NCBI GenBank assembly: GCA_019057385.1
Contig: JAHQJS010000004.1
Coordinates: 676,962-740,961 of the forward strand
Direction: 5' to 3'
From: Candidatus Borrarchaeum weybense
GTDB lineage: Archaea; Asgardarchaeota; Sifarchaeia; Borrarchaeales; Borrarchaeaceae
DNA length: 64,000 bases
Position numbers and translations under genes: made by a program. Each line of letters begins with the position of its first letter. Within the stretch, counting starts at the first letter, position 1. The notes beneath the pieces were generated by a model. That model worked only from the letters and a program-made list of their open reading frames with translations. It did not search any database and was not told the DNA's origin. Shown piece by piece: positions 26,851 to 29,747 of this stretch.

Positions 26851-27120
26851 TTCTGCTCGCGTTCGATGTTTTTGATTCGAATTTAAATTTTTGTGTAGAG
26901 GTTGAAGCTGTCATCTAATCACTTAAGCTTTAGATAAGTTTCATTTCGTCTACAAAACGCTGGAGAACAGCTATTCTTGGTGAAAAGTTCAATTCTCATA
27001 TGTGATCGTCTAGCCAATCGCCGAGGTCTGTAAGAACTCTTCTCCTATCCTCTATTAATTCATTGTAATCGCTTCTGGAGACTCCTTCCTTTTAAGGTGG
27101 AGAGGAAAGAGGCGTAAAAA

Positions 27121-28323
27121 CTAACATAAACTGAATAATAACCCTTTTCCATATGTTATCAACTCCACGTTGTTAATTGCGACACTGGGATTTTTTCCTT
27201 TAGGATTGTCCAACACAACTCGTTTTCCGTAACAATGAACTCCTTTTACTCTATATGTGTTATGATTATACTTGACAAGGTCATAGGGTTGCAACTGGTA
27301 TCTCTGTCTCCTAATAGACGGTTTGAATCCCTTTCTATTCTTCTGTAGCGAACGGTTATTGCGCCTGATTTGTATCACCTCATACGGGCGGCAGCGTTCT
27401 TGATTGGTGCCGCCGGCAATGACGAATGCATCATTAATATGAGATTTTTCTAAACCTAACTTATTGCGGTGGTATTTAGTAACGTATCCGTAAGTATATT
27501 CTGCATCTAATTGCTCTACTAGTTTCCAACGAATGTTATTCAGACAGGCGGTTGCTTTAAGTGGCGTCTTTGCCTGCTGCTGGATGTGAGGGTAGCCGAA
27601 CTCCTCGGCGGTCTTATCTCCTTTTTTAAGGTTACATTTCCTACAGGCGATCGTCAAATTCGACACTCGATCTGTCCCACCTCGGCTTTTCGGAACGATA
27701 TGCTCGACTTCTAGGGGCACGCCCGTTTTACCACAATAGGCACATTTGCGTCCCCACTTATCTAACAGGTATTCTTTGACTTCGTAGCCCTGAAGTTCGC
27801 CCTGCTGGTACTCTACGCCTGTAATTTCCGGATGTTGCATTTTGTGAGCGTCGAAATTGCCCACCTCTATTTTTTTGAAGGGTATCGGTAGCATCGTTTC
27901 AAGTGTTTCACCTAATCGAATATGTGAGTCATGCCGATGTTGAATACTGGGGGGTAACCAGCCTTCAGGTCGTGTTCGGTTATCAAATCGTGGTGGTCGA
28001 TACCCTAATCTGCCTCTACGAGTGCTACGATACCTACGTTTTTCCGCTAGCTTGTTAGATACATCCTTGCGCAAGCGTAACGTGCAACTGATGACTTCTA
28101 ATTTATCGGTCGTGGCACTAAATCCGAGTTTCATATATCCCGGGTCTACTCCCAGTTTAATCGATTGTGTCGCCTCTCCGGTGGCATAATTCAACTGAAT
28201 GGTAAACGGGCATCGCTGAACAACTGTTGCCTTGCCTTCTTTTAACAACTTTTTTCCTGTATGTTGTGTGGTCGGCATGAGGGGGTGCCCCCTCATGTTC
28301 AACACATAGATAGGTACTCTCAA
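27121..28323 (-). CDS. iscB: RNA-guided endonuclease IscB
   Basis: PLMP motif, RuvC-I LGVDPG, Arg-rich bridge helix, RuvC-II IEVGNFD, HNH CAYC..EHIVPKSRGGTD..SNL...C..CN, RuvC-III SHINDA; AGGAGG SD. Confidence 0.95.
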   Translation of the reverse strand: MRVPIYVLNMRGHPLMPTTQHTGKKLLKEGKATVVQRCPFTIQLNYATGEATQSIKLGVDPGYMKLGFSATTDKLEVISCTLRLRKDVSNKLAEKRRYRSTRRGRLGYRPPRFDNRTRPEGWLPPSIQHRHDSHIRLGETLETMLPIPFKKIEVGNFDAHKMQHPEITGVEYQQGELQGYEVKEYLLDKWGRKCAYCGKTGVPLEVEHIVPKSRGGTDRVSNLTIACRKCNLKKGDKTAEEFGYPHIQQQAKTPLKATACLNNIRWKLVEQLDAEYTYGYVTKYHRNKLGLEKSHINDAFVIAGGTNQERCRPYEVIQIRRNNRSLQKNRKGFKPSIRRQRYQLQPYDLVKYNHNTYRVKGVHCYGKRVVLDNPKGKNPSVAINNVELITYGKGLLFSLC

Positions 28324-28593
28324 GTCCTATCTCCTCCTTTAACGAGTGTTAAAGTCGGTTGGTTCTCTTCGCCAAGGTTATCAGTCAGTACTCTACGATG
28401 ATCACTGAGAGTTTCCTCTCTGTTTAAACCACCGTTTACAGAGCAAGGGACTAGAGAAGCATCCCTTGGTGTGTTCTTTAACTCTCCTGATAACTTAGAT
28501 ACCGCCATATCCATGACCTCTCTTAGGCTAATCAACTAATTACTCTCAGGTCTCACGACCCAAGCCCCGACTCTTCAGGGTGGGGTAATTGAC
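28324..28593 (-). ncRNA. omegaRNA (HEARO-type) scaffold of the IscB element; guide derives from host sequence 28594 onward
   Basis: GTCAA..ACCCC 5' hairpin, GTTGATTAGCCTAAG, GGATGCTTCTCTAGTCC, CTCTG, CCTTGGCGAAGAGAA; located directly upstream of iscB. Confidence 0.88.
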
Positions 28594-28630
28594 TGTAAAC
28601 CTCATGGTAGAGCCCCTCGTAGATTTTTAT

Positions 28631-29033
28631 CTAACCTCCGCAAGAAGACTCCATCCGACAGGGTGGAGATGAATTGCGGTACGGGTTGTGTCTCACGTAT
28701 CCCTTTCTGCGAGCACAGGGGATAGTGTGCCCATACCAAACTATATTTAACGACCTGTAAAGGTCAGCTCCGCCGAAGCGGGTTTGTCCTCATCACCAAT
28801 GTTGAGGCAGGCACGGAACATGATGATGGTACAGGTCTCGGGATACCGATCTGGGTCGTCCACCATGTCTTTCAGAGCCTGGAACTTGAGGAGCATTCCA
28901 GGGTGATTTTCAGACACTCAGCCCCGAACGTAGTTCATCTGCCTCCACCCTACAGGAGACTTCACTTAGGCTAATCTCCTACCCCTCTACAGGAGCTCTT
29001 TCAACCCCCTTCCGAAAGGGAGGGGTAGTTGAC
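28631..29033 (-). mobile_element. Non-autonomous ORF-less omegaRNA element (IscB-type ends)
   Basis: Starts GTCAACTACCCCTCCC, ends CTCCACCCTGTCGGATGGAGTC hairpin similar to the IscB element end; precise excision restores DKT|IKIYEG; inserted 5' of ATAAA. Confidence 0.88.
28760..29033 (-). ncRNA. Stand-alone omegaRNA scaffold (3' boundary approximate)
   Basis: GATTAGCCCTAAG, CTACGTT, GGAATGCTCCTCAAGTTCC, CTCTG, AACATTGGTGATGAGG parallel the first omegaRNA. Confidence 0.8.
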
Positions 29034-29287
29034 AGTTTTATCCGGCATACTCATTAATTCATCAAGTTCATCTGCACCAAGCACTAATGAATCTGAAGAT
29101 CTGCTTTGAACCAAAGTAGGAATCCTAATCTGACTAACCAATTTCTTGGCTTGCATATTTGCTGCTATTAATTCTGTGCCTAACTTAAAAGTGATTTTAG
29201 AAAGAACTAATGGATCGTCTTCATACACTGTAACTACGTTGGGATCACGAGAAATCTCCGTACTTAATTTGGGATCGATTTTGCGTT

Positions 29288-29395
29288 TCATGAGAAGGCG
29301 CGTCTTCGAGCGTTACCGAATCGTCTCATCAGGTCGTCCAGCACCTGTGTGTCTGCGAATGAGGTGATAACCCCAGGAAGTGTAATCACGGCCAT
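29288..29395 (-). pseudogene. Possible N-terminal fragment of an IS200/IS605 TnpB-related protein
   Basis: MAVITLPGVI...QVLDDLMRRFGNARRRAFS resembles TnpB-related N-termini; GC-richer than surroundings; abuts the deleted hydrolase. Confidence 0.45.
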
Positions 29396-29600
29396 AGTAC
29401 GTCGCTTCCAGTAGTTAGAAAGTTAGTAAGGAGCACCACTCTTATAAACAGACAGACCCCAACCTGTAACTAAAAAAGTGAAGCAGAAGACGGACCCCTT
29501 CAAAATTCACGGATTTTTTTAAAAACCCGAAATTCAAAATTGAAAAAAAGAAGCTGAAAAGGAAAAAAGAGAACGATAAGAGGCCTGAATAATTTTCTAG

Positions 29601-29747
29601 CTAAATCTTACCTTCCTTTTTCAATTTATCAAGCATTTCTCGACCGTGACATTTGATTATCTGCTCTTCTGAGCAGTTTCCTTCTTTAAATGAATCCCTA
29701 ATTTCAGGCTTGTCACATTCACATTCTTCGGCGTGTTTTTCAACCAT
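29601..29747 (-). CDS. Small Cys/His-rich protein (48 aa), not in ORF track
   Basis: GAGGTG SD; MVEKHAEECECDKPEIRDSFKEGNCSEEQIIKCHGREMLDKLKKEGKI. Confidence 0.6.
   Translation of the reverse strand: MVEKHAEECECDKPEIRDSFKEGNCSEEQIIKCHGREMLDKLKKEGKI

Follow-up and report, generated by a model that had tools for sequence, protein, structure and literature searches.

Why do two omegaRNA elements lie 37 bp apart in a single gene, and do they act together as an array of guide RNAs? The question is raised by a stretch of 64,000 nucleotides from the Asgard archaeon Candidatus Borrarchaeum weybense (the window; contig JAHQJS010000004.1, positions 676,962 to 740,961), on the minus strand of which a preliminary description, made from the sequence alone, had recognised two independent elements in tandem in one gene. 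Element 1 encodes an IscB nuclease, here called IscB-1, while element 2 carries no protein gene, and the interrupted gene is an alpha/beta-hydrolase gene. The two elements are separate insertions in the same direction. With a probability of roughly 85% we take them to be the outcome of ordinary transposon biology, that is, of serial neutral insertions into a dead gene that runs in their own direction.

Two scarless insertions in one hydrolase gene

Read 5' to 3' along the minus strand, the locus consists of 215 bp of foreign sequence, a hydrolase fragment, element 2, the 37-bp spacer, element 1 and the end of the hydrolase gene (Table 1). Removing both elements in silico leaves one open frame, ...MSMPDKT followed by IKIYEGLYHEVY and then NELIEDRRRVLTDLGDWLDDHI-stop, which is identical at every residue to the C-terminus of intact orthologues of 277 amino acids (P0002). 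The upstream fragment matches the Pfam family Hydrolase_4 (profile positions 142-206), and intact orthologues from metagenomes are 85-88% identical to it over an 86-amino-acid query. The gene is not carried by the same-genus or phylum genomes searched, and the empty alleles were therefore taken from metagenome contigs. These contigs share the gene order of the window (Fer4, HxlR, small open reading frame (ORF), hydrolase, MFS, flavin reductase, HerA-ubiquitin), the flanks of the syntenic loci are ~95% identical to it, and one contig with an empty locus is labelled as a Promethearchaeota (Asgard) metagenome-assembled genome.

At the nucleotide level, three empty loci (L054, L056 and L057) run uninterrupted across both insertion sites. 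The site of element 2 lies between nucleotides 2588 and 2589 of L054 and that of element 1 between 2625 and 2626; the spacer differs from the empty loci by one mismatch, and neither junction shows duplication or loss. At both sites we thus see what characterises IS200/IS605 elements, a scarless insertion beside a short conserved motif. The junctions given in the preliminary description (28631-29033 and 27064-28593, without target duplication) are exact to the base, and the intact alleles by which it proposed to check them agree at both sites. Its claim of two independent events also stands: the scaffolds of the two elements are only 62% identical over aligned columns and belong to separate copy families.

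Multi-copy repeats misassemble easily, and in principle the pair could have come from a chimeric assembly or from duplication in place. For a duplication, however, the scaffolds are too unlike, and the unique spacer matches the orthologous gene, as do both flanks. Moreover, a contig assembled in an independent study runs from element 1 across the spacer into element 2 (28515-28775, with two differences), and the tandem pair is therefore not a product of the assembly; we regard an artefact as extremely unlikely. Another contig of the same run lacks element 2 exactly and comes from a relative that is ~92% identical.

Table 1. Features of the locus, with coordinates in the window.
Feature	Position	Strand	Basis
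Hydrolase, final 22 codons and stop (NELIEDRRRVLTDLGDWLDDHI-stop)	26996..27063	minus	splicing and orthologue comparison
ATGAA, motif adjacent to element 1 (predicted TAM)	27059..27063	minus	flanks of relatives
Element 1, 1530-bp non-autonomous IS200/IS605-family IscB element	27064..28593	minus	ends from other copies in the genome
iscB, 400 aa, TTG start	28323-27121	minus	RuvC and HNH motifs present
Element 1 omegaRNA scaffold	28593-28358	minus	HEARO RF02033, 124.9 bits (gathering score 83)
Inter-element spacer, 37 bp of hydrolase coding sequence (IKIYEGLYHEVY)	28594..28630	minus	empty-locus comparison
ATAAA, motif adjacent to element 2 (predicted TAM), first 5 nt of the spacer	28626..28630	minus	flanks of copies
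Element 2, 403-bp ORF-less PATE-like IS200/IS605 derivative	28631..29033	minus	copies with ends in register
Element 2 omegaRNA-like scaffold	29033-28782	minus	HEARO, 60.4 bits, E 4.6e-11
Alpha/beta-hydrolase fragment, codons ~159-243 of the 277-aa protein	29034..29288	minus	
TnpB-related remnant, 215 bp: element 5' end and first 35 codons	29289..29503	minus	homology to 428-aa ORFs
aa, amino acids; TAM, target-adjacent motif.

Element 1 and its IscB

The omegaRNA scaffold of element 1 matches the whole Rfam model, and the iscB frame begins 34 nt after it on the same strand. IscB-1 has a complete RRXRR domain (1-174/174, 192 bits) and a complete HNH domain (1-47/47) in Pfam, scores 370.8 bits against the NCBIfam model guided_IscB (NF040563, cut-off 175), and finds solved IscBs as its best matches in the PDB. 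The motifs GVDPG, EVGNFD, EHIVP...N and HINDAF can all be read in its sequence. IscB-1 therefore belongs to the IscB family by its RRXRR domain, its HNH domain, its RuvC-III motif and the cognate HEARO directly upstream. The element closes with a subterminal hairpin end (~27110-27064), and 11 further full-length copies in the genome, 75-89% identical in nucleotide sequence, also have open IscB frames.

Element 2, a guide-RNA element without a protein gene

The scaffold of element 2 aligns with positions 1-211 of the HEARO model, and its score lies below the gathering threshold of 83 bits. Its RNA is a predicted HEARO-like omegaRNA of a divergent subfamily, below the curated threshold. The subfamily comprises six copies (five besides element 2) with their ends in register, and the consensus structure of the six has 86 predicted pairs, of which 8 are compensatory, with 3.7% non-canonical cells. 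Behind the scaffold, leader-like sequence runs to ~28731, and a subterminal hairpin end occupies ~28670-28631. The only ORF, of 56 amino acids, has no Pfam match. With both ends, no protein gene, and dispersed copies in unrelated flanks, element 2 is PATE-like. CRISPR-DR15 gives a weak match at 28998-29035 (21.7 bits, E 0.36), which corresponds to the opposite strand of the P1 stem of element 2, and we took the match as chance.

Over its first 303 nt, element 2 shares 90% identity with the leader of a second nuclease gene of the genome, iscB-2 (copy at C6:389682). It is thus a deletion derivative, which has kept the whole leader and omegaRNA together with ~100 nt of the far end.

Ends, guides and adjacent motifs across the genome

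To what extent do the two elements follow rules that hold for their relatives? The genome (4.18 Mb in 8 contigs, 37% G+C) contains 36 HEARO-type loci. Full-length open IscB frames follow 12 of them; about 17 are mini-elements, 360-415 bp long, that have both ends but no ORF. At the 5' end the similarity among all copies ceases exactly at GTCAAYTACCCC, and at the 3' end it ceases after a terminal sequence specific to each family. Copy alignments place subterminal hairpins (CTCCACC-loop-GGAAGGAG and CTCCACC-loop-GGATGGAG) ~20 nt from this end; the opposite end is formed by the P1 stem of the omegaRNA.

What follows the element depends on how it ends. Eight relatives of element 1 could be mapped to their ends: five end in ...GCGATTWCA or a close variant and are followed by ATGAA, while the remaining three end in ...GGAG(AT/TC/TA) and are followed by GTGAR. 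Among the relatives of element 2, ATAAA stands behind all seven copies whose end reads ...GCGGAGGTKAD. One genome therefore holds three classes of flanking motif (ATGAA/ATGAN, ATAAA and GTGAR), and the class goes with the nucleotides in which the element ends. Such a link between end and flank would be expected if the element end selects its target by base pairing, as in IS200/IS605 elements (Meers et al.).

We propose that the pair arose through two separate peel-and-paste insertions of the IS200/IS605 type, each just 5' (on the RNA strand) of the motif of its family, ATGAA or ATAAA, and each without duplicating the target. With an insertion 5' of the motif, the host sequence upstream of the scaffold becomes the guide, and guide and motif together spell the empty site. 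The predicted guide of element 1 (...CTACCATGAGGTTTACA) is accordingly the 3' part of the spacer, ~28594-28613, and that of element 2 (...GCCGGATAAAACT) the last ~16-20 nt of the hydrolase fragment, ~29034-29053. In the published model the ribonucleoprotein would then cut the donor joint after excision, and recombination would restore the element.

The preliminary description had drawn the same geometry, with the guide 5' of the scaffold and the target-adjacent motif (TAM) beyond the other end, and this is the IscB geometry of Meers et al.; the motifs it read for the pair are those of the mapped relatives and may be taken as predicted TAMs. It had further stated that both types are reported for IscB. 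For ATAAA this is correct; ATGA was not found in the literature consulted, though ATGAA fits the published type NWRRN.

Partners in trans

Element 1 would be served by its own IscB. For element 2 the likely nuclease partner is IscB-2, which would act in trans from another contig (L005:281-1504 = C6:388161-389384, minus strand). IscB-2 has 407 amino acids, is intact with all catalytic motifs, and is 53% identical to IscB-1. Directly before its gene lies its scaffold (C6:389432-389682), a divergent omegaRNA that scores 67 bits on HEARO, and its element ends in ...CTCGCTGATATCAA, then ATAAA.

For mobilisation the elements would depend on a TnpA in trans. The genome has a single gene for a Y1 transposase (Y1_Tnp, 131 bits), tnpA at C7:194191-194619, and its product is a candidate for the mobiliser of the IscB elements in trans. 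It belongs to a tnpA-tnpB element (L058, C7:194191-195880, with OrfB_IS605 and TNB matches) whose upstream hairpin, CCCTTCC-GAAA-GGTGGGG, resembles those of the IscB elements.

A third element and the loss of the 5' half of the gene

The foreign sequence in front of the hydrolase fragment is what remains of a third mobile element. It replaces 563 bp of the intact locus (L054 1771-2333) and is homologous to the start of ORFs of 428 amino acids on contig C7 of the same genome, in genome G004 and in same-genus genomes. Complete copies of this gene (L062:1578-2864 and L060:1605-2855) mark it as part of a multi-copy element. The protein matches TIGR01766, a TnpB-related model, with 36.4 bits (cut-off 32), and has neither a Pfam OrfB or TNB match nor a sequence match in the PDB; the family looks like a divergent TnpB. 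Together with elements 1 and 2, the remnant means that three OMEGA-type elements have struck one hydrolase gene. The join between remnant and hydrolase lies in a shared AAACGCAAA microhomology, which points to a microhomology deletion, and a contig from another study (run X6) spans 29310-29647, across the boundary 29503/29504 and most of the remnant. The remnant folds no better than its shuffles (z = -0.17). A hammerhead-like CUGAUGAG...CGAA at ~29310-29340 proved to be the coding start of the TnpB-related remnant, and Rfam finds no ribozyme there.

Compared with L054, the window lacks the promoter region and the first ~158 codons of the hydrolase. Judged by what is left of it, the gene is dead and no longer works, its 5' half having been removed. 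We suggest that the TnpB-related element, with a microhomology deletion after it, took away this 5' half. The claim that both omegaRNA elements sit in one gene is therefore right as to the gene, but an intact gene split twice is not what the locus records, since promoter and ~158 codons were already gone.

A few further observations concern the same gene and its upstream side. In a relative of 249 amino acids from a metagenome of the Joint Genome Institute (JGI), P0005, the family sequence ends after ...IRIPTLVQ and continues as a Gly/Arg-rich tail, which suggests that this gene has suffered a further insertion or a frameshift in another population. Upstream of the hydrolase locus a 51-amino-acid ORF without a Pfam match is followed on the minus strand by runs of T6, T7 and T5 (29513-29568), and a TATA-like TTTTTAAAAAAA lies at 29525-29513, just upstream of the boundary of the third element. 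The box is not interpretable by itself; runs and box together could possibly be a terminator followed by a TATA-like box, kept from the intact locus.

Why the two elements are side by side

If insertions were neutral and evenly spread, how often would two of them come so close? A gap of at most 37 bp arises in 1.2% of random placements, and in ~10% if insertions are tolerated in no more than a tenth of the genome. We suggest that the elements are adjacent because this site is permissive, a dead gene that reads in their direction. The same orientation prevails in the genome as a whole: among 23 omegaRNA loci with a long upstream frame, 18 have that frame co-directional and 5 opposite (one-sided binomial ~0.005). 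The same bias has been published, and was explained by the need for transcription of the guide from outside (Meers et al.).

Four points count against this account. Copies of the elements have diverged by 11-25%, and their mobility need thus not be recent. Under uniform placement a same-direction gap of 37 bp or less is improbable (0.6-1.2%), and some site preference beyond neutrality could still contribute. The 3' end of element 2 is closer to ATAAA-flanked elements of the IscB-1 type (C6:904793 and C4:845762) than to the IscB-2 element; a scaffold of the IscB-2 lineage joined to a far end of the IscB-1 type makes element 2 a mosaic, and its true partner may then be another nuclease than IscB-2. 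Lastly, the activities of protein and RNA, RNA-guided cutting included, are predictions from sequence throughout.

The low probability under uniform placement could also mean that the first insertion drew the second, for instance because a structured element exposes single-stranded DNA or stalls a replication fork, or because an excised circle reinserts nearby. Looser clusters of elements do occur in the genome, for example at C6:774-788 kb and C6:389-392 kb. Local hopping of a single element does not fit, however, since the two come from different families; just one pair is this close; and a dead gene in which insertions are tolerated accounts for the pair without any attraction. We consider directed clustering very unlikely.

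The more consequential alternative is a functional two-unit omegaRNA array, in which one transcript, begun upstream of the hydrolase remnant, would yield two guide RNAs for one or two nucleases and the layout would persist for its usefulness. Physically the segments do follow one another as guide-scaffold-guide-scaffold-iscB, as the preliminary description had claimed, and the serial origin of this order is well supported; the array as a working unit is where we part from it. Transcription does speak in its favour. The guide of an IscB is transcribed from outside its element (Meers et al.), and the guide of element 1 lies wholly within the spacer, so its transcription must pass through element 2 or start in the tail of element 2. 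From 29471 up to the iscB stop codon the sense strand contains at most four T in succession, and the first longer run, T5, follows immediately 3' of that stop; at this base composition, though, the missing T-runs are not significant. Co-transcription of both elements is plausible: it would be permitted by the sequence and even likely if the omegaRNA of element 1 is made at all. That the proximity is mildly non-random fits an array as well.

Several findings weigh against the array. Scaffolds, IscB lineages and flanking motifs all differ, and the nuclease matching element 2 is encoded elsewhere. Since each guide would recognise nothing but the empty site of its own element, no target is gained by the layout. 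Neither near-identical scaffolds nor recurrence across loci or genomes, by which a guide-RNA array would be recognised, is found: this is the only close pair among the 36 loci. Scans with exact patterns (two per collection, tuned to this family) for junctions at which an omegaRNA start comes after an element end recovered the window once as a control and found such a junction nowhere else in 185,579 representative genomes or in JGI metagenome contigs, records of the own genome being possibly excluded; as evidence against recurrence this zero is weak. We see no sign that the tandem order was selected, and a functional array seems to us unlikely. Serial neutral insertion into the dead gene remains the reading that we adopt.

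Contigs of two metatranscriptome runs cover both scaffolds at a likeness of at least 90%, but their loose ends differ from the flanks of the locus, which means that they come from other copies or other organisms; in DNA runs, too, matches pile up on the scaffolds, which are multi-copy. Among the contigs of the two metatranscriptome runs there is no transcript of this locus. In an RNA library (run X17), a contig of 298 nt consists of nt 185-331 of an element like element 2, 79 unmatched nt and nt 1-72, aligned to 28703-28849 and 28962-29033 of the window. It could represent either two units that almost abut or the end-to-start junction of a circle; circular omegaRNA isoforms have been reported for archaeal TnpB elements (PMC12558985).

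A further form of the array deserves mention. Read-through from the upstream promoter region that was retained, from the promoter of the truncated TnpB-related element, or from both might yield one precursor, two omegaRNAs and work for two IscBs, a primitive composite guide locus. We think this quite improbable. If it were true, close stacking of omegaRNA mini-elements would be a recurrent route to multi-guide loci, and the 298-nt contig is perhaps another instance of such stacking.

Relation to known systems

The locus combines an IscB insertion element with a PATE-like omegaRNA element; both are known kinds, and the combination is not a new type of system. Like the IscB elements already described (the G. 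stearothermophilus element, Meers et al. 2023; KraIscB-1, OgeuIscB and OrufIscB), element 1 has a HEARO scaffold bounded by the transposon end, a guide in the 5' flank, iscB downstream, no tnpA inside, no target duplication, an A/T-rich 3'-adjacent motif and a location behind co-directional genes. It differs in its Asgard archaeal host, in the size of its nuclease (400 amino acids, compared with 441-547 in solved stand-alone IscBs) and in the three motif classes that co-vary with terminal nucleotides within one genome. IscB/HEARO systems in archaea have been reported before. All four genomes of the same genus contain HEARO loci, as does the one genome of the same class that was searched; across the phylum the count is 13 of 151 genomes (this one included), and the expansion is thus largely a feature of this genus.

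Stand-alone omegaRNA loci were reportedly described by Altae-Tran and colleagues in 2021. ORF-less PATE elements that carry omegaRNAs and need their nuclease in trans are also known (Meers et al. 2023). Element 2 resembles these in keeping both ends and the scaffold, in lacking a protein gene, in being multi-copy and in presumably being served in trans; compared with those described, the ORF-less copies here outnumber the IscB-bearing ones (~17 to 12), and element 2 is a mosaic. With CRISPR arrays and CRISPR-associated IscB/Cas9 arrays, the locus shares guides that alternate with structured RNA on one strand upstream of the gene of an RNA-guided nuclease. Unlike them, it has two units only, with unlike scaffolds of 236 and at least 252 nt, each unit being a whole transposon; its guides are host flanks fixed at insertion, and it has no repeats, adaptation genes or recurrence.

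The locus leaves the existing picture of how IscB/omegaRNA systems work unchanged. It is a clean and fully resolved natural example of OMEGA logic, in which the interrupted gene displays two guides and two motifs that real empty alleles allow one to verify, and it yields predictions for two compact archaeal IscBs: one of 400 amino acids with its guide and ATGAA, and one of 407 amino acids with its guide and ATAAA. The genome itself, which has 36 omegaRNA loci and three motif classes but only one tnpA, and in which most copies lack a protein gene, lends itself well to testing how ORF-less guide-RNA elements, multiple nuclease lineages and one transposase may share the work in trans.

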